NCBI GenBank assembly: GCA_039029535.1 | Contig: JBCCFW010000006.1 | Span: forward strand, 26,429-90,428 | Direction of reading: 5' to 3' | Length of the DNA stretch: 64,000 nt | Source: Acidobacteriota bacterium | Lineage (GTDB): Bacteria > Acidobacteriota > JBCCFW01 | Part shown: in pieces, positions 5,764-64,000 of the stretch | Layout of the letters: every line of letters starts with the position of its first letter | Position numbering within the stretch: position 1 is the stretch's first letter | Position numbers and translations under genes: made by a program | Notes under the pieces: model-generated | Told to the model about the DNA's origin: nothing | Databases searched by the model: none | The model's input: the letters and a program-made list of their open reading frames with translations, nothing else

Positions 5764-6092
5764 CGCCACTGAGTAGCGGCGTTCAGGGTGCGTCAGGCGT
5801 GGTCATGAGCCGAGCCAGCGGCGTCCGCCACTGAGTAGCGGCGTTCAGGGTGCGTCAGGCGTGGTCATGAGCCGAGCGAGCGGCGGCGACGCCTACATCA
5901 GTAGGCGAGCGCCGCGAGTCGAAAGTGAAGGGCCGCGAATGGCGTGCCATGGACGCCGCTACGGAGTAGCAGGAGCGCCGGTGCGTCAGATGGGGCGATG
6001 AGCCGAGCGAGCGCGGCGGAGCCTACATGAGTAGGTGAGCACGCGCGAGTCGAGAGCGAAGCGTCCCAGATGACGTGCCGCCGCCCTGCTAC
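5764..6092. repeat. Cluster A of palindromic REPIN/MITE-like elements: one partial copy (62-bp period duplication) and full copies at about 5836-5961 and 5967-6091
   Basis: Terminal inverted ends GTAGCGGCGT...ACGCCGCTAC and GTAGCAGG...CCTGCTAC; shared core ATGAGCCGAGCGAGCG...CCTAC-N4-GTAGG...CGAGTCGA(A/G)AG(T/C)GAAG; lies between convergent genes. Confidence 0.85.
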
Positions 6093-8806
6093 GGGCAGCC
6101 GGCGGGGAAGCGGGTGTTGAAGTCCGTATCGGATCCAAACGTGTCATCCGAGCACGCCATCCCCTCACACCGCGCCAGGTACCAATACCCCTGCGCTCGC
6201 CCACCGCCGGGCAGGGCCTGCTCCGGCGGCGACGCGTCGATCTCGATGCGGAGGTTCACCGGCATCGACACGATGAGGCAGCCGGGATCGGTCATCGTCA
6301 GGTCGCTCGTCGTCCTGAGCAGTCCGAGGTCGCCACGCAGCAGCGTGTAGACGGCGGCGCCGACATCGGTCCAGCTCACCACGTCGTCGGGCTCGTCGCG
6401 ATCGACTTGCAGCCGGAAGGGCGGCGGCGGAGGCGTTCCGACGTTGAGGAAGACCGTCACGTCGTTGGTCGCGCCCGAGAGCAGGGCGACGTCCGGCAGC
6501 AGGTCGCCGTCGAGGTCGGTCGCCACCAGGCCGAGGTTGTCGAGGTTGGTGCCGAGCCGCAGCGGGGCCGCCACCATGCCGTCGCCGAGCGACTCGAGGA
6601 GGGTCAGGCGGTTGGCGTTGGCCACCGCGAGGTCGTCGATGCCGTCGCCCGACAGGTCCGCCACGACGATGTCGCGAGGCCCGGGCGAGACGCCGACGTT
6701 CACCACGGGCATGCCCAGCGAGCCTCCCGACTCGAGGTAGACCAGGAGGCTGCCCGAGCGCTCGAGCACCGCCAGGTCGTCCGCTCGCATGTCGCCGTCA
6801 AAGTCCCCGATGCGGAGCGAGTCGATGGTCACGAAGCTCTCGTTGAAGGGATCGGGGAGCGAGAGCATGTCGGTGAGGGCCCAGCCGCTGCCGTCGTCGG
6901 TGTAGAGGAAGAGCTGGGGTCGACCCGCTCCGGGAGCGGCGCTGTCCTTGCCGGCCACCACCACGGTGCCGGTGCCGAGATCGGGCATCCAGAGATGGTC
7001 CTGCGGCAGGTTGAAGCCGCCGACGATGTCGGCCATCGTGAAGCCGCCCATCCCGTCGCCGTGCCAAATCTCGAGCTCGGGGGTGATGGCGTCGTTCACG
7101 ACCACGAGGTCGAGCGCCCCGGGCGTCGCCGGGAGCCCGGCCGGACGCGAGGTGCCGCTGATGCCCAGCGCCACGCCGGGATCGAAGCCACCGAGACGGC
7201 CCGGATGGAGCGCGTGATCGGACACGGTGCCGACGAGAAGGTCGGGACGGGCGTCGCCGTCGAAGAGGTCGACCAGCAGCTCACGCACGCCCCCAGGGGC
7301 TCCCGGAGCGATGCCACTGGACTGCCCGAAGGAACCGTCGCCGGCTCCGGGCAGGAGGCCGAGCGAGCCATCACCACCACTGCCGATGACCAGGTCGGCA
7401 GCGGCGCTGACCGACTGCCGATTCACGGCCAGGGCCGTCGGTCCCTTGAGACCCGAAGCGAATGAGCGGGGCGCGTCGAAGCGGCCCGTGCCGTCGTTGG
7501 TGAGGAGGGTGAGCGAGTTGCCGTCGGAGGCGGCGACCACCAGGTCGAGAGAGCCGTCGCCAGCGAGGTCGGCGGCAGTGACGCCACCAGGGCGCCGTGG
7601 CGCGAGGTCAGGCTGCGCATGGTGGAACTGCGCGTCGATGTTGAAGTCGAGGGTGGCGCCGGCCCGGCCGGGCACGATCCAGACCCAGTTGTGCCCCTGA
7701 CCGGCCGTGACGACGTCGCCCGCATCGGTCAAGACGAGGTCGTCGACGCCGTCGGGCGCGCTACCGACACCGGTCTCCCCCACCACGTCGGCGAGGATCA
7801 TGGCCGAGAGCCGGGTGTCCTCACGCTCGGTCGCAAGGGGCGCAGCCACGTCGAAGACGATGGGGTCGTCGAAGGCCTCCATCGTCGGGTCACCGTTGCC
7901 CGGGTAGAGGAGCACGAGCCCCTGCTCGGTGGCCACGAGCGCGTCGAGCCGCATGTCGCCGGTGAACTCGCCGGCGATGGCCTCCACCGGTGTCTGCATC
8001 GGGTAGCCGGCGGGGGCCACGGGCTTGGCGACGAGGAGGTCGTTGCTGATGCCGAACAGCGGCTGCCCCGGCCAAACCACGAGCTGCATTCCCGCCGAGT
8101 CGACGGTGAGGAGATCCGGCTGTCCCGCCGTGTCGATGTCGACGAAGTCCCCGACCTCGATGTCGACGAGCAGGCGCACGTTCACGCCGGCGGTGGCCGC
8201 GGGGAAGACCGTTACGAACGCGAAGCTTCCCGGCGCGCCCTGCCCGGCCGTCTTCACCTCCGAGCCGGTGCAGAAGAACAGGTCGACGAGCATGTCTTCG
8301 TTCCAGTCGAAGAGCGCGATGCTCGCGCCGTCACCCTGACCGGCCGAGGGGTCGCTGAAGGTCCAGGCTCCCATGGCGTTGATGTAGGAGAAGAAGCGCG
8401 CGCTGTCCTCGTTGGTGCCGACGAGATCGTCGACGAAGGTGTCGCCGTCGAGGTCGACGGCCCGAATGGCCGTGGGACGATCGCCCACCCGGGACTCGTC
8501 GCGGGGCGCCATGTCGTCGGGCTCGAGCACCACGTGCTCGGTGAAGCTGCCGTCGCCCTGATTCTCGAAGATGATGATGGCCGGGCCGGGCGTGTCGACC
8601 AGCACCGCCAGGTCGAGCACGCCGTCCATGCCGGCCGGCATGCTGTCGGAGTTGACGAAGTCACCCGCCACCACCGCCACCGGGTCGGTGAAGGAACCGA
8701 TCGAGATCTCGTTGCGACCCCGCAGCTCGATCACCGCGGCCGCCGGCAACGCGAACGCGCACAGGATGAGACCGACGAGACAGCTTCGAGAGGTCCTGCG
8801 GCTCAT
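6089..8806 (-). CDS. Secreted FG-GAP/VCBS-repeat beta-propeller protein with a C-terminal Cys-Pro domain
   Basis: Signal peptide (ALPAAA-V); many D(L/F)xGDxxxDL repeats; ends FPAGCP. Confidence 0.85.
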   Translation of the reverse strand: MSRRTSRSCLVGLILCAFALPAAAVIELRGRNEISIGSFTDPVAVVAGDFVNSDSMPAGMDGVLDLAVLVDTPGPAIIIFENQGDGSFTEHVVLEPDDMAPRDESRVGDRPTAIRAVDLDGDTFVDDLVGTNEDSARFFSYINAMGAWTFSDPSAGQGDGASIALFDWNEDMLVDLFFCTGSEVKTAGQGAPGSFAFVTVFPAATAGVNVRLLVDIEVGDFVDIDTAGQPDLLTVDSAGMQLVVWPGQPLFGISNDLLVAKPVAPAGYPMQTPVEAIAGEFTGDMRLDALVATEQGLVLLYPGNGDPTMEAFDDPIVFDVAAPLATEREDTRLSAMILADVVGETGVGSAPDGVDDLVLTDAGDVVTAGQGHNWVWIVPGRAGATLDFNIDAQFHHAQPDLAPRRPGGVTAADLAGDGSLDLVVAASDGNSLTLLTNDGTGRFDAPRSFASGLKGPTALAVNRQSVSAAADLVIGSGGDGSLGLLPGAGDGSFGQSSGIAPGAPGGVRELLVDLFDGDARPDLLVGTVSDHALHPGRLGGFDPGVALGISGTSRPAGLPATPGALDLVVVNDAITPELEIWHGDGMGGFTMADIVGGFNLPQDHLWMPDLGTGTVVVAGKDSAAPGAGRPQLFLYTDDGSGWALTDMLSLPDPFNESFVTIDSLRIGDFDGDMRADDLAVLERSGSLLVYLESGGSLGMPVVNVGVSPGPRDIVVADLSGDGIDDLAVANANRLTLLESLGDGMVAAPLRLGTNLDNLGLVATDLDGDLLPDVALLSGATNDVTVFLNVGTPPPPPFRLQVDRDEPDDVVSWTDVGAAVYTLLRGDLGLLRTTSDLTMTDPGCLIVSMPVNLRIEIDASPPEQALPGGGRAQGYWYLARCEGMACSDDTFGSDTDFNTRFPAGCP

Positions 8807-11508
8807 GGACACGGCCCGCCCGCCATGAAGCGGACGGTCCCCATCGAGTCCATGCCGAAGCCCAGCGTGCAGTCCGGCGACTCACAGCGCAGGAGGTAGT
8901 AGAACGCGGGCGGGTAATCGCCCACGGGCGCCGGCAAGGGATCCTCGTCCTCGTAGGTGAGCACGCCGCCGCTGGAGAGCAGGCAGGTGGGAGAGCTCAT
9001 CGCGAGGTCGCGGTTGGTCAGGAGCTGGCCGAGGTCTCCTCGCAGGAGCGACCAGGTCGCGCCAGGCTGAGGCGCCCAACCCCAGTCGGGGTTCCCATCC
9101 GCATCGGCATCGCCGGAAATGCGGAGCTGCAGCGAGGCGACGCTGGAGTTGCGGAAGACCGTGAGATCGCCGGTGGAGCCGGAGCTCACGACGAGCTCGG
9201 CGAGACCGTTGGCATCGAGATCGACGGCAGCCGCGGCCACCGGATCGATGTTGGCGCTGAAGCGCGTGGGCTCCACCGCGAAGACACCACCGCCGACGGC
9301 TTCGAGCACGGCCACGCCGGTGCGCGCCACCAGGACGATGTCGTCGATGTTGTTGCCGGTGAGGTCGGCGGCGAGCAGCGACTGCGTGCCCGAGGTGCCC
9401 GTGAGCGGCATGGGCATGGCGACCAGACCGGTGCCGTCACCGAGGAACAGGAGGACGAAGGACGCCACCGCCATCGCGACGTCGTCTCGCTGACCGTCTC
9501 CGTCGAAGTCACCGAGCACCGCACCGTCGATGCGGAAGCCCATGTCGAAGGGAGTCGGGAGAAGTTGAGCCTGCTCGAGCACGAGGGTCGCGCCCTCGCT
9601 TCGGTAGACGCTGACCTCGGTCCCCGTGCCACCGGCATTGTCGGCGACCACCACCACCTCGTCGGTGAAGCCGTCGACGATGTCGCCCGTGAGATGCGCC
9701 TGATAGCCCTGGAAGCTGGCGATCATGGTCGGCGCACCGAAGGCACCGGCGCCGTCGCCCTCCCGGAGCTGAAGCTCGAACTGACCGATGCCGCCCGAGG
9801 GGATGACCGTCGCGAGATCGAGGGCCGCGGCGCCGACGAGCTCGCCGCTGCGGCTCTCACCACCGAAGCCGAGGCTCATCGCGGGCAGGAAGTCACCACC
9901 CACGCGGCCACGATGAATGGCGTGCGCATCGGCGGCGGTCACGATCACGTCGGGGAAGGCGTCGGCGTCGAAGTTGCCGACCAGGAGCCCGGTGAAGGGA
10001 CCCAGCCCCGAGTCGCTGGCAGCGAGCGCCGGCTGCTGGAAGCCACCGATGCCGTCGGCCGCCAGGACCGAGAAGTCACGACCGCGAACGAGGGCGACGA
10101 GATCGTCGCTCCCCCCTTGCCGACGCACCGCCAGGTTGGACGGGTTGGTGAGCCCCGCCGCGTAGGACCGCCCGGCATCGAAGGTGCCGGCCGTGTTGCG
10201 GAAGAGCGAGAGCCCGCGCGTCGAGTCGAAGTTGACGAGCGCGATGTCGGGAGCCGGATCGGCGTCGAGGTTGGCGACGGCCAGGGAGCGATGGAGCTGA
10301 GTGCCGAGATCGGCAGCCGCGTAATGCACCTGCCCCACGACGTCGAAGCGCGGCGTCGGGGACATCGTGATGCCGGGGAGGATCCACAACCAGTTGAAGC
10401 CCTCCTCGCTGGTCGGGTCGCCCGCGTCCGAGATGATGAGGTCGTCGACGCCGTCGGGGCCTCCCCCGACACGGTTGACGACGTCGGCCAGGACCATCGA
10501 CGAGAAGCGCGTGGGAAGTCGGTCCGCGCCGGCCGAGAGGAAGCCGATCACGTCGGTCTCGGTCGGGGCGCCGAGGCCCGCTGCGAGATCGCTCGGGTAG
10601 AAGAGGAGGTAACCCTCCTCGGTCAACAGCAGCACGTCGGGTGAGCCGTCGGCGTCGAAGTCACGCGTGACCACCGAGGCCGGCGTCTGCACGGAGCCGC
10701 CCGCCATCACGGGGATGAGCCGCAAGGCGTCGTTGCGCACGCTGAACGGGAAGAGGTCGCCGGGCCAGATGACGAGCTGTCGGTTCTGGTTGTCGACGGT
10801 GAGAATGTCGGGAAGGTCGTCGTCGACACCTGGCGAGAGGGCGATGAAGTCACCGATCGCGATGTCGGTCTGCGCGCCGACGGTGGCGCCGGCCGGCAGG
10901 AAGACGTTCACGTCCGAGAAGGTGCCGGCACCCGATCGACCCGCGGTGCGGACGGCACCGTTGGTCGTGCAGGCGAAGAAGTCCGGCATCATGTCGCCGT
11001 CCCAGTCCTCCAGCGCGATGGCCGAGCCGGAGCCGCTGTTGGCGTCCATGTCGGTGGGCGCCCAGCCGCCCGGCCCGTTGGCGAGCGCGAAGAAGCGAGC
11101 GCTCTCCTGGTTCACCCCGACGAGATCGTCCTGCAGGGTGTCCCCGTCGAGGTCGGCCACCGTGAAGTCGGCGGGGTCGTTGCCCAGGGTGGACTGCGTG
11201 CCCATCTCCTCGGCGGTGATGGTGCAGGTTGGGCAGACGGAGAACCGACCGCTGCCGTCGTTCTGCAGGAGAACGATGGTGTTGCTTCCGGAGATGAGGA
11301 CCGCGAGGTCGAGATCCGGCGTGCCCGGCGGAGTGGACGTGGCGTTGAAGAAGTCCGCGGCCAGAACCGCCGTGGCCCCAGCGCCGACTTCGTCGAGGTC
11401 GGTGCGACCGACCAGAGACACCTCCGCCCAAGAGCTCTCGGCGACGATCGCGACCAGCGCGACCACGAGCACTCCACGGGCCCACACGCTCGATGGCTCA
11501 GCGTGCAT
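8803..11508 (-). CDS. Secreted FG-GAP/VCBS-repeat protein, tandem paralog of 6089-8806
   Basis: Signal peptide (SSWA-E); collinear with its neighbour (DDLVGxNxxSARFF; DGVDDLxxxDAGD; NWxWIxPG); ATGA coupling; ends GGPCP. Confidence 0.85.
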   Translation of the reverse strand: MHAEPSSVWARGVLVVALVAIVAESSWAEVSLVGRTDLDEVGAGATAVLAADFFNATSTPPGTPDLDLAVLISGSNTIVLLQNDGSGRFSVCPTCTITAEEMGTQSTLGNDPADFTVADLDGDTLQDDLVGVNQESARFFALANGPGGWAPTDMDANSGSGSAIALEDWDGDMMPDFFACTTNGAVRTAGRSGAGTFSDVNVFLPAGATVGAQTDIAIGDFIALSPGVDDDLPDILTVDNQNRQLVIWPGDLFPFSVRNDALRLIPVMAGGSVQTPASVVTRDFDADGSPDVLLLTEEGYLLFYPSDLAAGLGAPTETDVIGFLSAGADRLPTRFSSMVLADVVNRVGGGPDGVDDLIISDAGDPTSEEGFNWLWILPGITMSPTPRFDVVGQVHYAAADLGTQLHRSLAVANLDADPAPDIALVNFDSTRGLSLFRNTAGTFDAGRSYAAGLTNPSNLAVRRQGGSDDLVALVRGRDFSVLAADGIGGFQQPALAASDSGLGPFTGLLVGNFDADAFPDVIVTAADAHAIHRGRVGGDFLPAMSLGFGGESRSGELVGAAALDLATVIPSGGIGQFELQLREGDGAGAFGAPTMIASFQGYQAHLTGDIVDGFTDEVVVVADNAGGTGTEVSVYRSEGATLVLEQAQLLPTPFDMGFRIDGAVLGDFDGDGQRDDVAMAVASFVLLFLGDGTGLVAMPMPLTGTSGTQSLLAADLTGNNIDDIVLVARTGVAVLEAVGGGVFAVEPTRFSANIDPVAAAAVDLDANGLAELVVSSGSTGDLTVFRNSSVASLQLRISGDADADGNPDWGWAPQPGATWSLLRGDLGQLLTNRDLAMSSPTCLLSSGGVLTYEDEDPLPAPVGDYPPAFYYLLRCESPDCTLGFGMDSMGTVRFMAGGPCP

Positions 11509-11730: not shown

Positions 11731-13083
11731 TCAGGCCTCTCCAGGAGCCTCGTCGTCGCCGGTGGGCTCAGCTCCAGGCTCAGCCTCGTCCCCGACCTCG
11801 GGCTCGTCCTGGGGCTCTTCGTCCGGCGGGAGCTGGACGGGGAGCTCCGTGAGCTGACGCGAGACCTGCTGCACGGTCGTGACGAGGTCGGTGAGCCGAG
11901 AGCCCAGGGTCTCCCCGTGGGCGACCAGGCGCGACTCCCGCACGCGGAGACGGCTGATCTCGCGCTCGGCGCGCTGCGTCTCCTCGGCGTGCTCCGACTC
12001 CACCTCGGACTGTTGGGAGCGGAGGATCGCGACCTGCTTGATCTGCCGCTGGGCCTCGTGGGAAGCGGTGTCGCGCTCCTCCTCGAGACGGCTCCGGCTC
12101 TCCTCGAGAGCTTCGAGCCGGCGCTCCGCGTCGTCGAGACGACGGGCCAGGTCCTTCTTTTCCCGCTCGTGGCTGGCCGCCGACTGGAGCGCCTCGTCGA
12201 GCTCGGTCGTGAGGGCGGCGTTCTTCTGCTCGTGGAGCTTGGTCTCGCGCTCCAGCGTCTCACTGACGTGCTCGGCGCCGTGCTTGAGCTCGTCGCGTTC
12301 GCCGGTGAGCGCCTCGAGCTGGACCTCGAGCTCACCCCGCCGCTGCAGCAGGTGCTCTTCCCGCGCACGCAGCCGATCGAGCTCTTCCTCCGCGGTGGTG
12401 GCTCGCTCCTTGACGTTGGCGAGCTCCTCCCGGAGCGAGAGCTCCTGATCGCTCAGCTTCTTGTTGAGGTCGGCGACGGTCGCGCTGAGCTGGGAGATGA
12501 GGTCGTTCTTGCGCGAGACCTCGGAGCGCATCGAGGTGAGCTGCTCGTCGAGCGCCTCGGCACGCCCGCGCGACGGGACACCGGCGCCGGTGCGGAGCGC
12601 CGACTTGAGCTCGTTCTCGATCTCGTGCCACTCCTCCAGGAGTCCCTCGCCCGACGGCGTGCCGCCGACGGTCTCGGAGAAGGACTCCATCCGGGAGATG
12701 GCTGCCTGGAGCTGCTCGCCGACGACCTCTTCCCCCTCGGCCTGAAGGGCGCCGAGCAACCCTCCCTCGGGCTCGGACGGCGGTCCGTCCGGCGCGGGAG
12801 GGTTGACGTCGGGGATCGGCAGGGGCGCCGAGACGGTCATCGGGTCGTCGTCGAGAGGCGCTGGCGCCGGCGGGCCGGCCGCCTGCCCTTCGTCGACACC
12901 CTGGGATCCGGCGTCTCGCAGCGACCCGAGCAGGTCGCCTCCCTCGTCGGAGTCCTGACCGGAGAGGTTGGCCACGGCACCTTCGCTGTCGGCGCGCAGC
13001 TCACCGAGGAGGTTGTCGCCCTCGGAGTGCTGGTCGCCTCCGGCGCCCGGCTGCTGGCCCTTCTGCTCGTCCTGAGTCGCCAT
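11731..13083 (-). CDS. Acidic disordered plus long coiled-coil protein of unknown function
   Basis: E/R/L-rich heptad-like region of more than 200 aa flanked by P/E/D-rich ends; start taken at MATQDEQ. Confidence 0.7.
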   Translation of the reverse strand: MATQDEQKGQQPGAGGDQHSEGDNLLGELRADSEGAVANLSGQDSDEGGDLLGSLRDAGSQGVDEGQAAGPPAPAPLDDDPMTVSAPLPIPDVNPPAPDGPPSEPEGGLLGALQAEGEEVVGEQLQAAISRMESFSETVGGTPSGEGLLEEWHEIENELKSALRTGAGVPSRGRAEALDEQLTSMRSEVSRKNDLISQLSATVADLNKKLSDQELSLREELANVKERATTAEEELDRLRAREEHLLQRRGELEVQLEALTGERDELKHGAEHVSETLERETKLHEQKNAALTTELDEALQSAASHEREKKDLARRLDDAERRLEALEESRSRLEEERDTASHEAQRQIKQVAILRSQQSEVESEHAEETQRAEREISRLRVRESRLVAHGETLGSRLTDLVTTVQQVSRQLTELPVQLPPDEEPQDEPEVGDEAEPGAEPTGDDEAPGEA

Positions 13084-13190
13084 CCCGAATCTCGAGCCTC
13101 CAGCCCTCATGTTAGCATTTCGGCCCCGATTCTCCTTCTTTGGAGTCTGCGCCACGGGGTCCGCGCGGATCCTGGAGCCCCCATTTCACC

Positions 13191-54087: not shown

Positions 54088-55199
54088 CGTCGAGCTCGCA
54101 AGAGCGCGAGGGCGTGACGCCCCACGCGTGACGCCGTGCCGCCCAGGCTTCGTTCCGACGACGTCCCCAGGACGCCCCGGACCAGTGCTCGAGCCGAGGT
54201 CAGGGAGCGCTCGTGCCAGAGCGCCGCCGAGAAGCGACGAGTCAGTCGGCGCGGTCGCGGTGTTCCGTCCTCCGCGAGCCCCCGCACGAGCTCACCGTTC
54301 GACAGGCGCAGGGCGAGAGCTCTCCGCCAGGGCGCCGCCCGTGGCGCGACGGCCTTCGGCCAGGCGGGAGCCCCGGCCACGCCGGCCAGTGTCCACGTGG
54401 ATCGCGCCAGCGCGCCGAGCCCGCGTCGATCGGCCTCGTCGCAGAGCTCGGCGACGCCCTCCTCCCCACGCTCGTCGACGAGACGACGGGAGAGCAGGGC
54501 GAGATCGCGCAGCGTCGGCCAGGTCTTGGCGCCGTCCTGCTCGAACAAGATCAGGTGAAAAGATTGCAAGAGAAAAGCATCCACGAGACCGGGAAGCTGA
54601 AGCCCCGGCACGCCCGCCTCGACACCGCGTTCGAAGAAGCGCCCGACCTGCAGGTCGAAGGGATGAGGCGGGGGGAAGAGATCGAGGTGCAGCTCGAGAC
54701 AGAGTCCCTCTCCCCCGTCGACGCCGCCCGTCTCGAGACGCCACACGGTGTGCAAGGCGGTGTCGTGACCGGTACGGCGAAAGCCGGCCGTCGTCAGGGC
54801 CGCCTCGGCCGGTGCCACCTGCTCGGGCAGGACGACCAGGTCGAGATCGGACATGGGTCGGCGACCCAGCTCACCGTGGGTGAGCCGCACCACGGCCTCG
54901 CCCTTGTAGAGCTGAGCGACGACGCCCTCGGCATGCAGCGCCGCACCGACGCGCTCGACCGCCGCACGACGTCTCCGTCCCAACACCTCCACCCGTCCCC
55001 GCTCGATCGCAAGACGCGTCTGCGCCTCCATCGAGAGCGCCTTCCGCGCCGGCAGGGCCGACAGCTCCGGCACGAGACGACGCTCGGTCAGGAACTCGAG
55101 CCAGGCCTCCTCCTCCGACGTGCTGAGCGGCTCGAGCGTCTCGTCGTTCAGGGCCCGACGGGTGAGCTCTCCCAGCGGGCTCAGGCGAGGACTCGTCAC
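54084..55199 (-). CDS. Nucleotidyltransferase family protein (NTP_transf_5-like)
   Basis: YKG...RPMSDLDLVV, LELH, LRDL; GTG start overlapping the upstream stop. Confidence 0.8.
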   Translation of the reverse strand: MTSPRLSPLGELTRRALNDETLEPLSTSEEEAWLEFLTERRLVPELSALPARKALSMEAQTRLAIERGRVEVLGRRRRAAVERVGAALHAEGVVAQLYKGEAVVRLTHGELGRRPMSDLDLVVLPEQVAPAEAALTTAGFRRTGHDTALHTVWRLETGGVDGGEGLCLELHLDLFPPPHPFDLQVGRFFERGVEAGVPGLQLPGLVDAFLLQSFHLILFEQDGAKTWPTLRDLALLSRRLVDERGEEGVAELCDEADRRGLGALARSTWTLAGVAGAPAWPKAVAPRAAPWRRALALRLSNGELVRGLAEDGTPRPRRLTRRFSAALWHERSLTSARALVRGVLGTSSERSLGGTASRVGRHALALLRARR

Positions 55200-56584: not shown

Positions 56585-57618
56585 GCAGCGCCTCCGTCGG
56601 CCACTCGCGCCGACGACGTCGTCTCGACCTCCTGCGGACCCGGGGTCGTCCCGTGGACCCGAGCGACGACGTAAGGCGGTGCGCCGCGGGCCTCGTGGTA
56701 GGTCCGGATGCCGATCTCGGCCAGCAAGCCGAGCATGACCACCTGCACCCCGAGCAGGAACAGGAAGACGGCAAGCAGGATGAGCGGGTTGCGGTGCACG
56801 AAGGCGGTGGGGTCGTGCCAGCGCTGGATCAGCGTCACGGCCCCGGCGATGCAACCCATGATGCAGCTCCCGACGCCGACCGCTCCGAACAGGTGGATGG
56901 GTCGGCTGCCGAAGTCGAGAAGGAGCTTGAGCGTCAGCAGGTCGAGGAGCACCTTCCCGGTGCGACCGATGCCGTACTTCGATCGGCCGGCGCGTCGCGG
57001 GTGATGCGCGACCTCGACCTCGACGACCCGACCTCCGGCCCAGGCGCAGTAGGCGGGCACGAAGCGGTGCATCTCGCCGTAGAGCCGGAACGAGTCGAAG
57101 AGATGACGTCGGTAGGCCTTGAGCGAGCAGCCGAAGTCGTGCAGCCCGAGGCCGGTGAGACGCGCGGCCAGGGCGTTGGCCAGCCAGGAGGGGAAGCGGC
57201 GGCTCCAGAAGGCGTCGTGCCGCTCACGCCGCCAGCCCGAGACGACGTCGGCGCCGTCGGCCAGCTCCTCGAGCAGACGCGGGATGTCCTTCGGGTCGTT
57301 TTGAAGGTCGGCGTCCATGGTGACGACGACGTCGTGGCGAGCGTGGTCGATGCCCGCCGAGAGCGCCGCGGTCTGACCGAAGGACCGAGCCAGCCGCACC
57401 ACGCGAGCCCGGGAGTCCCGCTCGGCCAGGGCGACCAACCACTCCGACGATCCGTCGTTGGAGCCGTCGTCGACGTAGATGACCTCGCTCGGACGCTCGA
57501 GCGAGTCGAGGACCGTCACGAGACCGTCATGCAGGGCTTCGAGGTTGTCGCGCTCGTTGAGGACCGGGATGACGACGGACAGTCCTTCGGGAGCGCGCTC
57601 CTCTGGGAGGACCGCCAC
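56581..57618 (-). CDS. GT2 polyprenol-phosphate glycosyltransferase (ArnC/GtrB-like)
   Basis: VDDGSND, FGQTAA, MDADLQNDP, LYGEMHRF, SKYG, two C-terminal TMs. Confidence 0.92.
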   Translation of the reverse strand: MAVLPEERAPEGLSVVIPVLNERDNLEALHDGLVTVLDSLERPSEVIYVDDGSNDGSSEWLVALAERDSRARVVRLARSFGQTAALSAGIDHARHDVVVTMDADLQNDPKDIPRLLEELADGADVVSGWRRERHDAFWSRRFPSWLANALAARLTGLGLHDFGCSLKAYRRHLFDSFRLYGEMHRFVPAYCAWAGGRVVEVEVAHHPRRAGRSKYGIGRTGKVLLDLLTLKLLLDFGSRPIHLFGAVGVGSCIMGCIAGAVTLIQRWHDPTAFVHRNPLILLAVFLFLLGVQVVMLGLLAEIGIRTYHEARGAPPYVVARVHGTTPGPQEVETTSSARVADGGAA

Positions 57619-57695
57619 GAGCCGATCATGTCAATCCGACTCCCCTACGGTCAGCAGGAGCGATCAGCATTCCAGCCTGGCGCCCGAGGCCCCCG

Positions 57696-58796
57696 TCACG
57701 ACTCGGCCAGCAAGTCGGCGACCGCTCCGGCGCAGGCCGCCCACGATCGGGCCGCGGCGATGGCCAATCCCCTGTCCCGCCGGGTCGCTGCGTCCGACTC
57801 GGCCTCGGCCAGGAGCTCACTCACCGCCGCGGCCAGGGCCTCGGCGTCGTTCACCGGCGCCAGGGCAGCCGCCCCGTCGGTGAGCTCTCGCAGGGACGGC
57901 AGCGCAGAGCAGGCCACCGGCGTGCCGCAGGCCAGGGCCTCGAGCACGGGGAGGCCGAACGACTCCACCCTCGAGGGATGAAGCAGGACATCGGCCCGTC
58001 GGAGCAGCCCGGGGAGCTCCTGCCGGGGCGGCCCGCCGAGGGGGGCCATCCGTCGACGCGCCTCGTCCGACCAGCCTCGACCCTGCCCGAGGCGGTCGAG
58101 GTCCTCCTCGGTGAGACCCACCAGCTCCAGGCGGTGCGGGATCGACGAGGCGAGACGGGCGAAGGCATCGCAGGCGACGACCACGTTCTTGTAGGGGCTC
58201 GGGTTGCCGATGACCAGGAGGCTCGGCGTCGGCTCGGGAGGTGCCGGTGCGGCCTCGGGCGAGAACGACGGGTGGACCCCGTGCGAGACCACCCGCAGCC
58301 GACCGCGAGACTCGGGCACGAGCTCCTCGAACTCCTCGGCGAAGGCGTGGCTCGGCGCGATGAGGACGTCGGCTCGCCCCGCCGTGCGTCGGATGGCGTC
58401 GTCGAGCCAGAAGCGCCAGTAGAGCCGCCGCCCCAGCGGCTCTCCCTCGGGCTGGGAGAAGTTGAGATGGTGGTGGAGGGTGATGACCGTCGGCGACCGG
58501 GGTCCGGTCGGCAGGAGCTGACCGTCGGGGACGAGATAGCGATCCGCTCCGAAGTCGGCGAAGACCCGCGGCACGGCGCGGCGGGCGATGAGGAGTCGCG
58601 CGATCCGGCCGTTGGGCGTCGGCTGCCGCACCACGTCGCAGCCGAGCTCGCCGATGCGGTCGGCGAGGAAGGGTGTCGAGAGCACCACGCAGTCCCCGCC
58701 CAGACGCTCGACGAGCGGCGGGAGCAAGCCCTCGACGTAGACGATCGACGAGGTCGACTGCGGCTTGATGCTCAGCAGCGGGATCAACACCTTCAC
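57696..58796 (-). CDS. GT4 glycosyltransferase
   Basis: YKN, PSRVESFGLPVLEALACGTPV. Confidence 0.9.
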   Translation of the reverse strand: MKVLIPLLSIKPQSTSSIVYVEGLLPPLVERLGGDCVVLSTPFLADRIGELGCDVVRQPTPNGRIARLLIARRAVPRVFADFGADRYLVPDGQLLPTGPRSPTVITLHHHLNFSQPEGEPLGRRLYWRFWLDDAIRRTAGRADVLIAPSHAFAEEFEELVPESRGRLRVVSHGVHPSFSPEAAPAPPEPTPSLLVIGNPSPYKNVVVACDAFARLASSIPHRLELVGLTEEDLDRLGQGRGWSDEARRRMAPLGGPPRQELPGLLRRADVLLHPSRVESFGLPVLEALACGTPVACSALPSLRELTDGAAALAPVNDAEALAAAVSELLAEAESDAATRRDRGLAIAAARSWAACAGAVADLLAES

Positions 58797-58957
58797 GCGC
58801 GGAGCCTACCGTGCTTCCGTCCCGACTCGACCCCGTCGCGAGGCCCGCTCGGAGCGGACCGGGCGGCCGGTCGGGCCGAGGCCGGTCGTGCTACTGTCCC
58901 GGCGTCGTCCCGGGTGTCCTGCCCGGCCGTTCCCTCCCCCTCGTCGTCGCGAGCACC

Positions 58958-60133
58958 GTGTCCCCGCAACCCCCTCGTCTCCTGGTCCTCAGCCAGGCCC
59001 ATCCGCACTTCTTCACGCGCTGGCTGGAGCAGCTCTCCCGGTCGCTCGGACCGCTGGAGCTGTGGACGGGGACGGTGCCCTCGCCGCCGCTGCCCGACGT
59101 GGAGGTCGAGCCCCTGACGCCCTACGTCCGGGAGTCGAACCGATCGCGGCTGAGGTGCTGGCTGTCGGCCACCGCGCACGTCGCCCTGAAGCTGCTGACA
59201 CGACGGGAGCGACCGCCGCTGCTGGTCCTCACCAACCCGCCCTTCCTCCCCCTGCTGATCGGCTTGCTCGCTCCCTTCCTCCGCCTCCGCTACGCCTTGC
59301 TCGAATGGGACATCTACCCGGAGGCCGTGAGCGCCATGGGCTTCGCCGGGGAGAAGAACCCGCTGCTGCGCATCTGGCGGAGCCTCCACGGTCGCGCGCT
59401 GCGGGGCGCCGAGCTGGTCATCACTCTCGGTGACGGAATGGCCGACCGACTCCGCGAGGCCGCCGGCGACGACCTGGCAGTCGAGGTCATCCCCGTGGCC
59501 GCCGACCTCGAACGGCTCCGCCCGCTCCCACGGAGCGAGAACACCCTGGCAACGGAGCTCGACCTGGGCGACGAGCTCGTCGTCCTCTACTCCGGCAACC
59601 TCGGCGCCACCCACGACCTCGAAGCCCTGCTCGCCGCCATGCACGAGCTGAAGGACGAGACCGGCATCCGCTTCGTGGTCGCCGGCGAGGGCAGCCAGCG
59701 TCGTCTCTTCGAGGACGCCGTGACGAAGGGGCAGCTCCCCCAGCTCTCGCTCCTCCCCTTCCAGCCGGAAGCCCGACTTCCCGAGCTGCTCGCCTTGGCC
59801 GACGTCGGGGTCGTGACCCTCGCCGCTCGGCTCTCGGGGATCTCTTCACCCAGCAAGATGCCGCCGCTCATCGCGGCGGGCGCAGCGCTGGCGGTCATCG
59901 CGCCGGCGTCCGACGACCTCTCGTCACTGGTGGTCGACGCCGACTGTGGTCGCAGCTTCCGCTCCGACGATGCCGTCGGCCTGGCCGGCTGGCTGCGCGA
60001 GCTGGCCGCCGATCGCGCGAAGCTGCATGCGCTGCGGGAGAACGCTCGTCGGCTCGCCGAAGAACGCTACGACGAGCGGCGCTGTCTCGAGCGGATGGCT
60101 GCCCGCATCGACGAGACCTTGCTGCGTCAGTAG
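58958..60133 (+). CDS. GT4 glycosyltransferase (WbuB/WcaI-like)
   Basis: TNPPFL, DIYPE, LYSGNLG, PFQP, PSK. Confidence 0.9.
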   Translation: MSPQPPRLLVLSQAHPHFFTRWLEQLSRSLGPLELWTGTVPSPPLPDVEVEPLTPYVRESNRSRLRCWLSATAHVALKLLTRRERPPLLVLTNPPFLPLLIGLLAPFLRLRYALLEWDIYPEAVSAMGFAGEKNPLLRIWRSLHGRALRGAELVITLGDGMADRLREAAGDDLAVEVIPVAADLERLRPLPRSENTLATELDLGDELVVLYSGNLGATHDLEALLAAMHELKDETGIRFVVAGEGSQRRLFEDAVTKGQLPQLSLLPFQPEARLPELLALADVGVVTLAARLSGISSPSKMPPLIAAGAALAVIAPASDDLSSLVVDADCGRSFRSDDAVGLAGWLRELAADRAKLHALRENARRLAEERYDERRCLERMAARIDETLLRQ

Positions 60134-60158
60134 CTCGGCTCAGCCGGCACCGTGAGAC

Positions 60159-60893
60159 TCAGCGCCGGTGACGCCGCGCCGGACGTCCGGCTTCGAGAGC
60201 GCGCCGGTCCATCTCCTGTCGGAGACGTCGCCCCCGGGACATCCGCGGACGGTCTTGCACGCGTCGGATGGGACCCGCCTCCACCGTGGTGCCGGCGATG
60301 ACCAACATCCCCGAGCTCGTCGGCGAGTGGAAGACGACCGGCCAGGAGCCGACCGCGTCGTCGCCGCCCCAGGACTCGAGCTCGAGTCGCGTCGGCGCCT
60401 GGTCGGGTCGGGAGGCGGCGGCCAGGTCGAGGAAGAGACTCCAGCCCTCGGTCGAGCGCAGCTCGAGACCCGGCGGGCTCCCATCGCTGGCCACGCGGAG
60501 ACCGAGCGCGTACTCGCCCGCCGGCACGGCCACCGGACCACCGGGGGACGGGCCGAGAAGGATCGGTCCCGGCGCGACGAGGCGTCCGGCCTGCGAGTAG
60601 TCGGCGTGGTCGATGGGTCCCCAGCCGGCCGACAGCCAGCGAGGCTTGCGGAGGTCACCGCGGACCGGGCGGAGCTCGACGAGCACCTGGCCCGGGACGC
60701 TCTCGACCCGCTGGCTGGCCCGCAGCGAGCCGGCGACCGAAGACGCCAGGCCCAGCGAGGGCGACAGGACGAGCAGGACGGCGGGAACGAGCCGCCGGAG
60801 CGAGCTCGTCGAGGACGACGTGAGAGCGAGTCGGAGCAACGTGGCCTCCGGTCTGGGCCCCGCCGCCGGGCGGAGCGTGAGTGCCGTGCTCAA
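60159..60893 (-). CDS. Hypothetical exported protein
   Basis: Possible signal peptide and beta-rich body; no recognisable motif; start uncertain. Confidence 0.4.
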   Translation of the reverse strand: MSTALTLRPAAGPRPEATLLRLALTSSSTSSLRRLVPAVLLVLSPSLGLASSVAGSLRASQRVESVPGQVLVELRPVRGDLRKPRWLSAGWGPIDHADYSQAGRLVAPGPILLGPSPGGPVAVPAGEYALGLRVASDGSPPGLELRSTEGWSLFLDLAAASRPDQAPTRLELESWGGDDAVGSWPVVFHSPTSSGMLVIAGTTVEAGPIRRVQDRPRMSRGRRLRQEMDRRALEAGRPARRHRR

Positions 60894-61001
60894 CCTAGCA
60901 GAAAGGGCAGAAGGGCCGGAGCGCGGCGTCGGAGCTGAGAGGTTCGATCGCGTAGACTGACCGCGTCGGCCTGCTGGTCCCCCGCCACGAAAGACCGCCG
61001 C

Positions 61002-62570
61002 GTGTCATCGGAATCCAAGCCAGCCGCGCTGTCCCAGCGGGCCGCACAGGGCGCCTTCGCTCTCACCGTCTTCAACGGCGCCGCCGCCTTCCTCGTCGTC
61101 GGCCTGACGACCGTCCTGAACCACGTGCTCGCCGATCCCCGGACGGAGATCGGCGTCTGGCAGCTCCTGCTCCTGCTCTTCGGCCTGTCCTCGACCATCT
61201 TCGAGGGCGGGCTGGCCACGGCGCTCAAGCAGGCCAAGGAGCTCACGCCTCCGTTGACCCGCACCCTCGTGCGCATTCAGCTCCTCTTCAACGGCCTGGG
61301 CATCGCCCTGGTCTTCATCTTCGCGCCCTTCCTCACCAGCCTGGTGACCGACGAGCCCCTGACCGAGCTGCTCCGCCTGTCGGCGGTCGGTCTCCTCTTC
61401 GTCGCCTTCGGCCAGCCGCAGAAAGCCCTGCTCGAACGCGACCTGCACTTCCCCACCGTCGCCCGCATCGAGGCGGGCTGCACGACCCTCTTCGTCGTCG
61501 CGGGTCTTCCGCTGGGCATCCTCCACGGGGCCGAAGGCCTGCTCTGGGCGACGCTGCTCCGACATGCCGTCGAGACCGTCTTCTACTGGCGCCTCGGACC
61601 TCTCCGCATGGCCGACCTCGTGGCAACCGGCACCTTCGACGGCGCGGGCACGCCGCTCCGCACGGCGGCTGGGATGTGGGGCCAGGTCGTCGTCTCGCAG
61701 TGGCGACTCGTCGACCGACTGCTCGTCTCCAAGGTCCTCGGCGCCGCGACCCTGGCGTTCTACGGCCTGGTGCAGACCATCCTCGCCCTGCCGCTGGCGC
61801 GCTTGACCATGTACATCATGCGCGTCGCGCTGCCGGCTTTCTCCCGGGTGCAAGACTCGCCGGAGCGACTCAACCGCGGGCTCGAGCAACTGCTCGGGCT
61901 CCTGGCGCTCACGCTGTTCCCGATCATGGCTGGCCTGTGCTCGGTCTCACCCCGGCTCTTCTTCCTGCTCTGGGGACCCGAGTATGACGACGTCCTCGCT
62001 CTCGCCTCTCAGGTCACCGTCGTCCTCTGCGTCGGCGCTGCGGCGATGGTCTTCACCAACCCCCTCGGCATCGCCCTCAACGCCAAGGGCAAGTCGACGC
62101 TGCTGCTGGTCATCCAGACCACGACCGCGGTGGTCATGATCATCTCCTTGCTGCTGTCCGCCGGCCGGGGCGTCCTCATGGTCGCCGGCGTGCGCAGCCT
62201 CGGGCTGTCGCTGATGAGCCTGGTCCTGGTCGTCCTCGCGCGACGACATCTCGGCTTCTCGGTCCGCCGATCCTGGCGGGCGGCCTGGCGCGCGCTCGCG
62301 GTCGCCGTGGCCATGGGCGTGGCGGTGGCCCTCGCCGGTCGCGCCGCCGGCCAAGCCTGGCCGGCCTGCGCGCCGCTGCTGGGACACGACGAGGCGAGGG
62401 CCACGGCGGTGACGCTCGTGCTCGGCGGGCAAGTCCTGCTGGGCGTCGGCCTCTACGCCCTGGGGGTCAAGCTGCTCCGCGTGCCCATCCCGCCGGTGTT
62501 GTTCGACTTGCTCGCGCGACTGCGCGCGCGCCTGACGCGGAGCGACGCGAGGGTAGACTCGGCCACATGA
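61002..62570 (+). CDS. wzx: Wzx-type oligosaccharide flippase
   Basis: LLERDLHFPTVARIE, DRLLVSKVLG..LAFY, VALPAFSRVQD; many TMs. Confidence 0.87.
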   Translation: MSSESKPAALSQRAAQGAFALTVFNGAAAFLVVGLTTVLNHVLADPRTEIGVWQLLLLLFGLSSTIFEGGLATALKQAKELTPPLTRTLVRIQLLFNGLGIALVFIFAPFLTSLVTDEPLTELLRLSAVGLLFVAFGQPQKALLERDLHFPTVARIEAGCTTLFVVAGLPLGILHGAEGLLWATLLRHAVETVFYWRLGPLRMADLVATGTFDGAGTPLRTAAGMWGQVVVSQWRLVDRLLVSKVLGAATLAFYGLVQTILALPLARLTMYIMRVALPAFSRVQDSPERLNRGLEQLLGLLALTLFPIMAGLCSVSPRLFFLLWGPEYDDVLALASQVTVVLCVGAAAMVFTNPLGIALNAKGKSTLLLVIQTTTAVVMIISLLLSAGRGVLMVAGVRSLGLSLMSLVLVVLARRHLGFSVRRSWRAAWRALAVAVAMGVAVALAGRAAGQAWPACAPLLGHDEARATAVTLVLGGQVLLGVGLYALGVKLLRVPIPPVLFDLLARLRARLTRSDARVDSAT

Positions 62571-63511
62571 GCAACGACTGGTCCGGACGTCGGATCCTCG
62601 TCACCGGAGGCGAGGGTTTCCTCGGCTCTCACCTCGTCCCCAAGCTCGCCGAGCGCGGAGCGGAGCCGACGGTGGTGCGCCGGCGTGAGCACGACCTGCG
62701 CCGTGCCGAGGACTGCCGCACGCTCCTGGAGAGCACGCAGCCCGACGTGGTCGTGCACCTCGCCGCGGCGGTGGGCGGCATCGGCGCCAACCGCAAGCAG
62801 CCCGGCACCTTCTTTCGCGACAACGCGCTCATGGGCATCCACCTCATCGAGGCCTGCCGCGAGGCCGAGGTCGCGAAGGTGGTCGTGGTCGGCACGGTCT
62901 GCGCCTACCCATCGCACCCGCCACTCCCCTTCTCCGAGTCCGACCTCTGGAACGGTCATCCCGAGCCGACCAACGCGCCGTACGGGATCGCCAAGCGAGC
63001 CTTGCTGACCATGCTCGCGGCCTACCGCGACGAGTTCGGGCTCGCCTCGGCCTATCTCCTCCCGGCCAACCTCTACGGCCCCCGTGACGACTTCGACCTC
63101 GAGACCTCGCACGTCATCCCCGCGCTCATCCGCAAGATGGTCGAGGCGCGGGAGGCCGGACGAGACGAGGTCGTCCTCTGGGGCGACGGCAGCCCGAGCC
63201 GTGAGTTCCTCCACGTGTCGGACTGCGCGGAAGGCCTGTGCCTGGCCATCGAGAAGCTCGACGAGCCGACCCCGGTGAACCTGGGCACCGGCGTGGAGAT
63301 CACCATCCGCGAGCTGGCCGGGCTCATCGCCGAGCTCACCGGCTACGAGGGCACGATCACCTGGGACATCGACCAGCCCGGCGGTCAGGACCGTCGCTGT
63401 CTCGACGTGAGCCGGGCGCGCGAGCTGCTCGGCTTCGAGTCCCGGGTCACCCTGGCCGACGGGCTGCGCGAGACCATCGCGTGGTTCGAGAAGGAGGGAC
63501 GGACCGGCTGA
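62567..63511 (+). CDS. fcl: GDP-L-fucose synthase
   Basis: VTGGEGFLGS, AAAVGGIGAN, TVCAYP, YGIAK, SHVIPALIRK, WGDGSPSREFLH. Confidence 0.94.
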   Translation: MSNDWSGRRILVTGGEGFLGSHLVPKLAERGAEPTVVRRREHDLRRAEDCRTLLESTQPDVVVHLAAAVGGIGANRKQPGTFFRDNALMGIHLIEACREAEVAKVVVVGTVCAYPSHPPLPFSESDLWNGHPEPTNAPYGIAKRALLTMLAAYRDEFGLASAYLLPANLYGPRDDFDLETSHVIPALIRKMVEAREAGRDEVVLWGDGSPSREFLHVSDCAEGLCLAIEKLDEPTPVNLGTGVEITIRELAGLIAELTGYEGTITWDIDQPGGQDRRCLDVSRARELLGFESRVTLADGLRETIAWFEKEGRTG

Positions 63512-63532
63512 GCGGCCCGCCCCTCCGACGGC

Positions 63533-64000
63533 TCATGGACAGGGAACCGTCGGCCGCAGGCGACCGTCCGAGCCGACACCGTAGGCCGCCATCACCAACC
63601 CGCACTGGGTGCGAGCGGTGACGAGGTAGTAGTAGCCCGCCTCCTTGATGGGGAACGGGTCCGTGTCCTCGAAGCTCGGCTCGCTGGCCACCAGCAGGCA
63701 CTCGTGGTCGTAGGGCTCGGGCCCCCGGACGCCCATCCCTCTCATCGCAGGGATGGTGCCGCGAAGCACGGGATAGTCCATCGCCGCCACGTGACCTTCC
63801 CAGGTGAAGCCGTCCGGGCTTCCCCGCAAGGTGTCGGCAGGGTCGGCCTCCTCGGTGCAGGGCTCGACCACCGTGAAGCTCGTCGTGCTCGACGCGACGC
63901 TCGCGCCGCACTCGACCAGCCAACGACACTCGACCGTGTAATCGGGCCCCTCGACCGGGAAGCCGACGTCGAGAAGGGCGAAGCCGTCGTTGAGCACCTC
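63533..64000 (-). CDS. C-terminal part of a probably secreted protein ending in the Cys-Pro domain (5' end outside the window)
   Basis: Frame open to the window edge; FTW..DYPVLRG..CLL..FEDTDP..YYYLV..CG..YGVGSDGRLRPTVPCP. Confidence 0.75.
   Translation of the reverse strand, partial: EVLNDGFALLDVGFPVEGPDYTVECRWLVECGASVASSTTSFTVVEPCTEEADPADTLRGSPDGFTWEGHVAAMDYPVLRGTIPAMRGMGVRGPEPYDHECLLVASEPSFEDTDPFPIKEAGYYYLVTARTQCGLVMAAYGVGSDGRLRPTVPCP

Follow-up and report, generated by a model that had tools for sequence, protein, structure and literature searches.

C-terminal tags found on unrelated exported proteins include those of the PEP-CTERM/exosortase, LPXTG/sortase, MYXO-CTERM and GlyGly-CTERM systems, each of which is made up of a short motif, a transmembrane (TM) helix and a basic tail. 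The C-terminal domain (CTD) of the type IX secretion system (T9SS; PF18962/TIGR04183, or the FlgD_ig-type PF13860) is a beta-sandwich-sized unit of approximately 80–110 aa, and is carried by unrelated Sec-exported hydrolases and adhesins. Dockerins, which pair with cohesins, and SLH domains are mostly terminal, occasionally N-terminal or internal, and occur on dozens of unrelated secreted enzymes. Soli_cterm (TIGR03437), which we take to be included in NCBIfam, is presumably a large paralogous C-terminal domain of an Acidobacteriota genome and of no known role. Here, we examine a domain that ends three proteins encoded in a 64,000 bp stretch (the window) of contig JBCCFW010000006.1, positions 26,429 to 90,428, from an Acidobacteriota metagenome-assembled genome (MAG; assembly GCA_039029535.1). 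A first-pass annotation had proposed that these three C-termini share a lineage-specific sorting or anchoring signal of about 110 aa that ends in Cys-Pro-stop.

Three proteins with a common C-terminal domain

The three carriers are here called A, B and C. Their genes and terminal domains in the window are listed below, with the domain cores as delimited by a leave-out hidden Markov model (HMM).

8803..11508, minus strand: gene for carrier B, the first gene of the B–A pair; an open reading frame (ORF) whose 901 aa translation comprises a signal peptide, FG-GAP_3 beta-propeller repeats and a terminal fibronectin type III (FN3)-like domain
8806..9135, minus strand: terminal domain of B, its last ~110 aa (HMM core 8806–9081), ending GGPCP before the stop
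11425..11508, minus strand: predicted signal peptide of B, MHAEPSSVWARGVLVVALVAIVAESSWA (heuristic, from the translation)
6089..8812, minus strand: gene for carrier A, a paralogue of B of 907 aa, with its start at GTG 8812 or ATG 8806
6092..6421, minus strand: terminal domain of A, its last ~110 aa (HMM core 6092–6379), ending PAGCP before the stop
8735..8806, minus strand: predicted signal peptide of A, MSRRTSRSCLVGLILCAFALPAAA (heuristic, from the translation)
63533..64000, minus strand: 3' end of the gene for carrier C, which extends past the end of the window
63536..63865, minus strand: terminal domain of C, its last ~110 aa (HMM core 63536–63805), ending TVPCP before the stop

The endings quoted in the first-pass annotation were exact, and its strand needs correction, as all three genes are on the minus strand. 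In translation, A ends FGSDTDFNTRFPAGCP, B ends FGMDSMGTVRFMAGGPCP and C ends YGVGSDGRLRPTVPCP. The tail of B contains four Cys. FG-GAP_3 was detected in B (E = 1.8e-24) and in A (E = 3.4e-27), and Pfam places nothing on the tail of either. The complete ORF of C encodes 1041 aa (G000:C6:89964-93086), and a Pfam scan of this full ORF returned no family for its cargo portion.

Carriers A and B are full-length paralogues in tandem (37% identity, E = 3e-127), so their common tail is not independent evidence. BLASTP aligned A with C over the tail at E = 1.4, and this pair alone is no better than chance. However, an HMM built from 147 other C-terminal copies in the same genome, with A, B and C excluded, recovered C (E = 9.9e-12), B (E = 4.4e-8) and A (E = 1.1e-4) from among 85,074 six-frame ORFs, and each of the three matches extended to the final residue. 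The link between the three tails is therefore significant at the level of the family and not from pairwise BLASTP, and the common domain claimed at first pass is confirmed, at E-values of 1e-4 to 1e-11. The tail of C is the most typical of the three and that of A the most divergent (i-E 3.4e-8 with the iterated HMM described below). In a sister genome (G001), a homologue of B spans residues 13–899 of 901, the tail included.

The TGA stop of B and the ATG of A overlap as ATGA (window 8803–8806, minus strand). Such an overlap suggests a shared transcript and coupled translation for the two FG-GAP paralogues.

The domain family in the source genome

The genome from which the window comes (G000) is an 8.0 Mb MAG in 340 contigs, with 68.5% GC, 83% completeness and 2.3% contamination. 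When an HMM made from the three tails was iterated over the 85,074 ORFs until convergence, 162 ORFs were found to carry the domain. With a copy counted as C-terminal if it lies ≤30 aa from the stop, 150 of the 162 are C-terminal; 92 are ≤3 aa from the stop, and in 74 the match includes the very last residue. The domain is approximately 90–110 aa, and an A-strand-like segment (PPxEVSxPG..PLRV) that precedes the HMM core brings the total to the ~110 aa originally estimated.

The motif given in the first-pass annotation is in essence the consensus of the family. In the 150 terminal copies, the column frequencies are 0.83 for the W, 0.91 for the G of 'RG', 0.80 for the L, 0.97 for the central Cys (Cys35) and 0.93 for the L of YYLV, with 0.87, 0.74, 0.77 and 0.75 for further G, S, G and R columns and at least 0.83 for the last Cys. 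With the central Cys at 97% and the last Cys at 83% or more, the iterated model had not drifted into generic FN3. A third Cys (Cys66, in 'NxCG') is present in 37% of copies, and a Cys within 35 aa upstream was found in 49 of the 55 copies with Cys66 versus 52 of the 95 that lack it (p = 1e-5), which suggests that Cys66 and the upstream Cys form a second disulfide in a subset of copies. The copies are acidic: 99% have a negative net charge, and the median is −6. In the last 40 aa of the 150 tails, TM-like hydropathy (a 15 aa window ≥1.6) was seen in two, an LPXTG-like motif in three and a basic tail in seven, as expected from the first-pass statement that the tails have neither a TM helix nor a basic end.

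A subtype of the domain has a 9 aa extension that ends in C-x4-(L)LGCP and makes a further small Cys loop. This subtype is limited to one 12-member cargo cluster (in contigs C93, C34, C66, C31, C45, C46 and others), and this confinement to a single cargo family indicates that some of the expansion reflects duplication of whole genes and not shuffling of the domain.

Cargo and export

Once stripped of the domain, the cargo portions fall into 56 single-linkage blastp clusters, and the view of the domain as a modular tag on unrelated cargo is thus upheld. Pfam searches with 60 representatives identified peptidases (M14, M28, M43, M12B, M64 and M23), other enzymes (sulfatase, arylsulfotransferase (ASST), GSDH, ThuA, beta-lactamase fold and PHB-depolymerase-type esterase), a PNGase-F-like domain and MauG/CCP. 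Also present were FG-GAP, PKD, LamG, LTD, beta-helix and BNR, and TSP_3 repeats were frequent. No family was assigned to the tail of any of the 60.

A heuristic signal peptide was found in 116 of 147 carriers versus 1177 of 2985 other called genes of ≥300 aa, and a looser version detected one in 149 of 162 carriers versus 2368 of 5216 others. The heuristic is home-made and crude, and these counts support export of the carriers.

Relationship to fibronectin type III

None of the three carriers had a match to the tail (E ≤ 1) in Pfam-A (2025) or NCBIfam 20.0, and the first-pass remark that the domain was not recognized as a named family is supported. The same searches with 62 tails at E ≤ 10 returned no family, only single noise matches, none of which fell on more than one of the 62 tails in NCBIfam. 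In particular, PF00041 (fn3) detected none of the 62 tails at E ≤ 10 and was not found on the tails of the 60 full-length carriers.

A profile of the 62 tails was then compared with 1.84 billion representative proteins. It retrieved 12,988 matches at E ≤ 1e-3, 2238 at 1e-10 and 54 at 1e-30. The top matches were giant tandem-repeat proteins with up to 42 repeats that cover only profile positions ~3–73 of 84. Six of the matched proteins were scanned, and four are PF00041 fn3 repeat proteins; the other two (P0036 and P0101) contain TSP_3 and full-length copies of the domain. The motifs W, GAxSYxVYxG and YYFVVxAxNxxGE are common to the domain and the fn3 repeats, at 16–28 bits per repeat. An hhalign comparison of the tail alignment with 34 fn3 repeats gave a probability of 95% (E = 3.6e-8) over columns 3–74 of 96, and a profile search of PDB returned a weak match to the Fn3-like 3mpc_A (E = 0.024), as well as to Ig-like repeats of GhpA. 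From the retrieval of fn3 repeats, the common motifs and the hhalign result, we conclude from sequence comparison that the domain is a remote FN3 homologue that forms a distinct FN3-derived subfamily. A match to ordinary FN3 had been foreseen at first pass as counting against a new domain. This objection is half borne out: the homology is real though remote, and the subfamily is one to which PF00041 is blind.

The domain differs from fn3 in the addition of the invariant central Cys and the terminal Cys, and in its last ~20 residues, G-x-D-S-x-G-x-x-R-x(4-7)-C(-P), which fall outside the fn3-aligned columns 3–74. By these comparisons the fold family is known, and the Cys pair and the last ~20 residues are new. 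Furthermore, fn3 is an internal repeat or linker, whereas this domain is found at a protein extremity, in single copies that number dozens to >140 per genome. Neither Pfam-A (2025) nor NCBIfam 20.0 includes the subfamily or records its scale and terminal use, and no description of the domain was found among the papers listed by literature searches on Polarisedimenticolia, Mor1, Acidobacteria C-terminal sorting, secreted FN3, bacterial TSP3, and C-terminal Pro with carboxypeptidases. The tables of predicted secreted peptidases that accompany PMC8528874, a source available to us in part, may nonetheless list such proteins.

A related internal FN3 variant with the motif YLVRAENDETC(G/S)(G/T)GP.NGG is located ~100–170 aa before the end of very large proteins and matches only the first two thirds of the profile. 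It was found at loci L069, L071, L084, L107, L110, L112, L135, L142, L143 and L164, in Acidobacteriota- and Terriglobia-labelled MAGs.

Position within proteins

The first-pass expectation that the domain would always be C-terminal was not strictly borne out, although 150 of the 162 copies conform. Of the 12 remaining copies, which are >30 aa from the ORF end, approximately nine directly follow a signal peptide. These proteins are arranged as signal peptide, domain, thrombospondin type 3 (TSP3) repeats and enzyme, a mirror image of the cargo, TSP3, domain order, and their enzymes include three SASA esterases, GSDH, SGL and a beta-lactamase-fold protein. A TSP3 motif is present ≤150 aa upstream of 32 (strict) or 61 (loose) of the 150 terminal copies. 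Among metagenomic proteins with full-length matches, eight have one internal and one terminal copy (P0101, P0126, P0134, P0141, P0146, P0118, P0135 and P0107), and four have two or three internal copies in long TSP3 arrays (P0036, P0038, P0041 and P0086). In these arrays each copy ends C-P or C-x and is followed by the next D-x-D-x-DG repeat.

Elsewhere, 30 of 33 copies (30 loci) in five other positive genomes are C-terminal, as are all 11 in an 800 kb sample of the genome of Acidobacteria bacterium Mor1, and loci selected by motif include 89 terminal and 55 internal copies. The domain thus occupies an extremity of the protein, not strictly the C-terminus.

The same place in homologous cargo proteins can be filled by other modules. 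A Mor1 carrier ('hypothetical protein ABI59_12540') consists of a signal peptide, Spondin_N, TSP3 and the domain. Among 120 listed Spondin_N homologues, 19 carry the domain, all at the C-terminus, nine have a T9SS-type CTD (PF18962 or PF13860) and one has a dockerin; none has two of these. Among 120 listed homologues of the M64 peptidase carrier of G000, 16 have the domain, again always C-terminal, and others have PF18962 (three), a dockerin (one), SLH (one), a MYXO-CTERM name (one) or RTX repeats (three). The slot is therefore used elsewhere for addressing modules, though not exclusively, and the tag-like placement proposed at first pass is seen in the same slot as a T9SS CTD, dockerin or SLH.

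The Cys-Pro ending

In G000, 112 of the 162 domain ORFs end in CP, and 110 of the 165 ORFs of ≥200 aa with this ending are family members. CP endings are also in excess among the called genes that lack the domain (36/4290 versus 4.6 expected, p = 2e-20). Two or three of these 36 are missed family members and the rest represent at least 25 unrelated tails. The heuristic detected a signal peptide in 29 of the 36. Among them are the genes for five large paralogues that end EPGPDCP, ATCP or ELCP, and examples of the 36 are C69:439-5169, C73:30360-34121, C92:14170-17577, C155:5392-9540 and C224:5812-9495.

In the Mor1 sample only two of the 11 copies end in CP, the others ending CQ, CE, CN etc., and the CP enrichment was not reproduced (0/503 genes, 0.36 expected). 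The reading of Cys-Pro-stop itself as the signal is rejected on these two observations. The terminal Pro is a habit of this lineage and not the address, and it may be protective. As internal copies still end C-P or C-x before the next repeat, we read the final Cys(-Pro) as the structural end of the domain rather than a free-terminus signal.

Distribution among genomes

Seven of 31 Acidobacteriota genomes, approximately one per family, were positive, with at least 150, 73, 47, 21, 51, 44 and 1 copies. In a larger set of 151 genomes from the phylum (E ≤ 1e-8), 123 were without the domain, 12 had 1–8 copies and 16 had ≥10, where counting stopped at 35 copies per genome; nine of the 12 low-copy genomes belong to one family. 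The class of the window genome is represented in the set only by G000 and G001. Two genomes flagged as unpublished are included in these tallies (G023, negative, and G150, positive), and with unpublished genomes excluded 7/30 and 27/150 are positive.

Named genomes were scanned with a degenerate DNA pattern that is biased to one motif and to GC-rich codons. Among the matches listed, most were to MAGs of Acidobacteriota, Ca. Polarisedimenticolia/Polarisedimenticolaceae and Thermoanaerobaculia, together with Mor1, which has an NCBI lineage of subdivision 22. GTDB class Mor1 corresponds to Ca. Polarisedimenticolia (PMC8528874). The match coordinates in G094, a genome labelled as of one phylum with the window, coincide with those in Mor1, and the window is thereby assigned to Acidobacteriota. 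Of two marker genes considered, rpoB is fragmentary and AspRS shows 46–50% identity to all five genomes compared, which gives no discrimination. Whole-genome counts were at least 144 for Mor1 and at least 149 for 'bacterium Bpl_9'. Outside the phylum, by MAG label, there were 73 copies in Verrucomicrobiia, 31 in Ca. Binatia and one in Actinokineospora. The distribution is patchy and high-copy, and the counts in Verrucomicrobiia- and Ca. Binatia-labelled MAGs show that the domain is not lineage-specific, contrary to the first-pass suggestion.

Search for a partner

A co-occurring translocon or peptidase, anticipated by the first-pass annotation, did not emerge from searches for T9SS components, secretins, exosortases and conserved neighbours. 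The T9SS type-A CTD model (TIGR04183) had no matches in G000. SprA (TIGR04189) was found in none of six positive genomes (G000, G001, G004, G031, G032 and G035) in a search whose control was also silent, and PorV (NF033710) in none of five, where the control matched weakly, in B. thetaiotaomicron only, and G000 is 83% complete. Secretin-like matches were obtained in 31/31 genomes, and GspD exceeded the cut-off in three, all domain-negative. A classical type II secretion system (T2SS) secretin showed no correlation with the domain across these 31 genomes and was discarded as the partner. Exosortase (PF09721) was present in 1/28 domain-positive versus 27/123 domain-negative genomes (p = 0.03, from related genomes that are not independent), and with this near-complementary pattern it was also rejected. 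The single positive genome with an exosortase is G000 (C25:49392-50171), unlike the 27 other domain-positive genomes.

Among conserved neighbours of the carriers in G000, none codes for a barrel or a peptidase. Just one family was enriched at a distance of up to three genes from carriers, a set of 22 double-helix-turn-helix (HTH) proteins of the XRE type, 10 of which are neighbours (binomial p = 1e-4, uncorrected). These paralogues are ~690 aa with two HTH_3 domains each (examples are G000:C27:27286-29349 (L198), C19:1003-3066 (L199) and C308:757-2859 (L206)), and they may be dedicated regulators of the carrier exoprotein genes. At 137 foreign loci the neighbour clusters were mostly overlapping antisense ORFs and yielded no partner candidate, and no cohesin-like partner or scaffold candidate was found. 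Among the sequencing runs listed as matching the window DNA there was no RNA run, only a single marine metagenome.

Possible role of the domain

We tentatively favour, with somewhat less than even confidence, the view that the tails are a disulfide-stapled FN3-fold subfamily that serves Sec-exported proteins as a terminal 'end module' for anchoring or binding. Anchoring or binding at the extremity is rated the most likely role because the domain can lie at either terminus, also occurs in tandem and internally, fills a dockerin/SLH-like slot and is patchy and high-copy in distribution, and an anchoring or binding module fits better than a sorting signal. A carrier would be exported via Sec and undergo oxidative folding in the periplasm, where the invariant central Cys would pair with the last Cys and so fix the family-specific tail, G-x-D-S-x-G-x-x-R-x4-7-C, to the sandwich. 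A second disulfide, made with a nearby upstream Cys, would be present in roughly one third of copies. The module would then stand at one extremity of the mature protein, usually the C- and sometimes the N-terminus, often on a Ca-binding TSP3 stalk, and may tether varied cargo, such as hydrolases and FG-GAP/PKD adhesin-like proteins, to a single partner that all of them share, located at the cell envelope or beyond it. A scaffold protein or some component of the surface or matrix could be this partner.

Several points weigh against a dedicated anchoring or binding role. FN3 domains are often passive spacers. Nothing that resembles machinery lies beside the carriers in the window, and the neighbourhood, T9SS, secretin and exosortase searches produced no partner candidate. 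The acidity of the domain makes plain electrostatic binding to anionic envelope polymers unlikely unless Ca2+ bridges the two. The slot in M64 homologues can also hold PKD, CarboxypepD_reg, CARDB, Calx-beta or FG-GAP, and as such non-anchoring accessory domains fill the same place, positional equivalence is only suggestive.

If, instead, the domain is an ordinary FN3-type module without a specific partner, spread by duplication and shuffling, it could serve as a passive cap or spacer that stabilizes exoproteins. A C-terminal Pro resists carboxypeptidases A and B, and a disulfide-pinned, often Pro-ending C-terminus would resist carboxypeptidases and tail-specific proteases in peptidase-rich secretors. 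This fits the FN3 homology, the internal copies that are units of long TSP3 arrays, the excess of CP endings among non-domain genes of G000, mostly with signal peptides, and the M14 carboxypeptidases among the cargo. However, spacers normally lie between domains and not at an extremity in 92–100% of cases, and a generic stabilizer would not be expected to be missing from 123 of 151 genomes and present in ≥10 copies in 16. The lack of CP enrichment in Mor1, where most copies have no Pro, and the conserved family-specific tail G-DS-G-R-C, which suggests a selected surface, also argue against a passive cap, and we regard it as rather unlikely. Alternatively, the domain may serve secretion targeting: an outer-membrane translocon of an undescribed type would recognize the folded module in the periplasm, much as PorV/Sov read the T9SS CTD, and the cargo would thereby be directed through the outer membrane, whether or not cleavage follows. 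Secretion targeting would explain the extreme C-terminal position of 150/162 copies and of 11/11 in the Mor1 sample, the dozens to >140 cargo proteins per genome, which are comparable to T9SS cargo numbers, and the mutual exclusion of the domain and the T9SS CTD on homologous cargo. With GspD above the cut-off only in three domain-negative genomes, the positive genomes are also left without an obvious route for so many folded exoproteins. On the other side, the copies that follow a signal peptide or lie within TSP3 arrays are hard to square with the reading of a free C-terminus, SprA (0/6) and PorV (0/5) were not found in positive genomes, in searches with silent or weak controls, hhalign against nine T9SS CTDs gave a probability of 0.3%, and no conserved neighbour encodes a barrel or peptidase. 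Taken together, the N-terminal and internal TSP3-array copies, the failure to find T9SS components and the Pro that is dispensable in Mor1 argue against a strict C-terminal sorting signal, and we consider secretion targeting unlikely.

The least likely reading, in our judgement, is that the domain targets a substrate in the manner of a carbohydrate-binding module (CBM), by binding a polymer or particle common in marine sediment, e.g. algal or bacterial cell-wall material or exopolysaccharide, and so concentrates diverse hydrolases there and not on the surface of the producer. Degradative enzymes do dominate the cargo, CBMs are likewise found at either terminus and in tandem, and the only run with window DNA is a marine metagenome, possibly the source sample, which gives weak support. 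Yet many carriers, A and B included, are non-enzymatic (FG-GAP, PKD and beta-helix), the domain is not similar to any Pfam CBM family, and it is not obvious what single ligand would suit peptidases, sulfatases, esterases and cytochrome c peroxidase-like proteins.

The anchoring or binding module that we favour could be part of something larger. It is possible, though on balance doubtful, that this FN3-like, Cys-stapled end module is the address tag of an undescribed protein-sorting or surface-attachment system with a dedicated partner gene set, and that this system is at once shared among Acidobacteriota from marine and sediment habitats (relatives of subdivision 22/Mor1 and several further families), transferred to MAGs of other phyla, responsible for 1–3% of the proteome (up to ~150 proteins per cell) and a replacement for T9SS CTDs, dockerins and PEP-CTERM tags in these lineages. 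If a dedicated partner exists, the module would join the T9SS CTD as a further case in which diderm bacteria address proteins by means of a fold, and would provide a handle for enzyme display; a passive cap would still account for a striking genome-wide regularity.

In either case, one unmodelled domain marks ~160 exported proteins in G000, mostly hydrolases and adhesin-like proteins, and at least 144 in the closed Mor1 genome. A family model would annotate thousands of 'hypothetical' proteins and would delimit the part of the exoproteome that these uncultured lineages keep in association with the surface or matrix. These Acidobacteriota are abundant in marine sediments, and have been proposed to degrade proteins and polymers (PMC8528874).

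Other features of the window

The genes around the carriers in the window include housekeeping genes, an Mla system, FtsK, a T2SSE/MshEN ATPase and an exopolysaccharide locus. The polysaccharide locus (46769–63511) encodes a Wzz/GNVR-type chain-length/kinase protein, Poly_export/SLBB, a BBP2_2 beta-barrel, a PMT_2 glycosyltransferase, GT2 and GT4 enzymes, a Polysacc_synt_3 flippase and an epimerase. It is convergent with the gene for carrier C and ends 22 bp from the C stop. A 785 aa ORF at 29997–32351 (minus strand) encodes a T2SSE-family ATPase with N-terminal GAF and MshEN domains, and among the genes adjoining it in the window none was recognized as a further type II or type IV pilus gene.

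Four long ORFs with coding-like GC3 have no Pfam family (E ≤ 1e-5): 16057–19143 (minus strand), 25219–27567 (plus), 26312–29974 (plus) and 11734–13185 (minus). One of them, a Glu/Arg/Leu-rich ORF of 484 aa, is directly upstream of carrier B. The two plus-strand ORFs overlap each other and their true frames are ambiguous.

Comparison with known systems

The PEP-CTERM, LPXTG, MYXO-CTERM and GlyGly-CTERM tags and the domain described here are alike in their C-terminal place on unrelated exported cargo, but a TM-like segment (2/150) or basic tail (7/150) is rare in the domain. With Soli_cterm it shares the character of a large paralogous C-terminal family in Acidobacteriota; no NCBIfam model, presumably including TIGR03437, matches the tails. 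The T9SS CTD is similar in size, C-terminal position and range of cargo, and occupies the same slot on homologous cargo, never together with the domain there. However, the two have no sequence or profile similarity (hhalign probability of 0.3% against nine PF18962-positive tails), and the domain has N-terminal and internal copies and probably disulfides in addition.

In the thrombospondin signature region, a beta-sandwich at the C-terminus comes after type 3 Ca-binding repeats. A large subset of carriers is alike in having TSP3 repeats (PF02412) and then a putatively Cys-linked terminal beta-sandwich. The likeness is architectural only, as the terminal domain of thrombospondin is the lectin-like TSP_C and that of the carriers is FN3-like, and TSP3 is upstream in just 32–61 of 150 copies.

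Dockerin-cohesin and SLH systems are alike in the mostly terminal, occasionally N-terminal or internal, place of the module, in its presence on dozens of unrelated secreted enzymes, in an all-or-little phyletic pattern and in the use of the same slot in cargo homologues, and the association of the domain with Ca-binding D-x-D-x-DG (TSP3) repeats can be likened to them. They differ in fold, with an EF-hand-like pair or SLH in place of an FN3-like domain, and neither PF00404 (dockerin) nor PF00395 (SLH) matched any of the 60 carriers or 62 tails. By analogy, the module resembles a dockerin or SLH domain more closely than a cleavable linear sorting signal.

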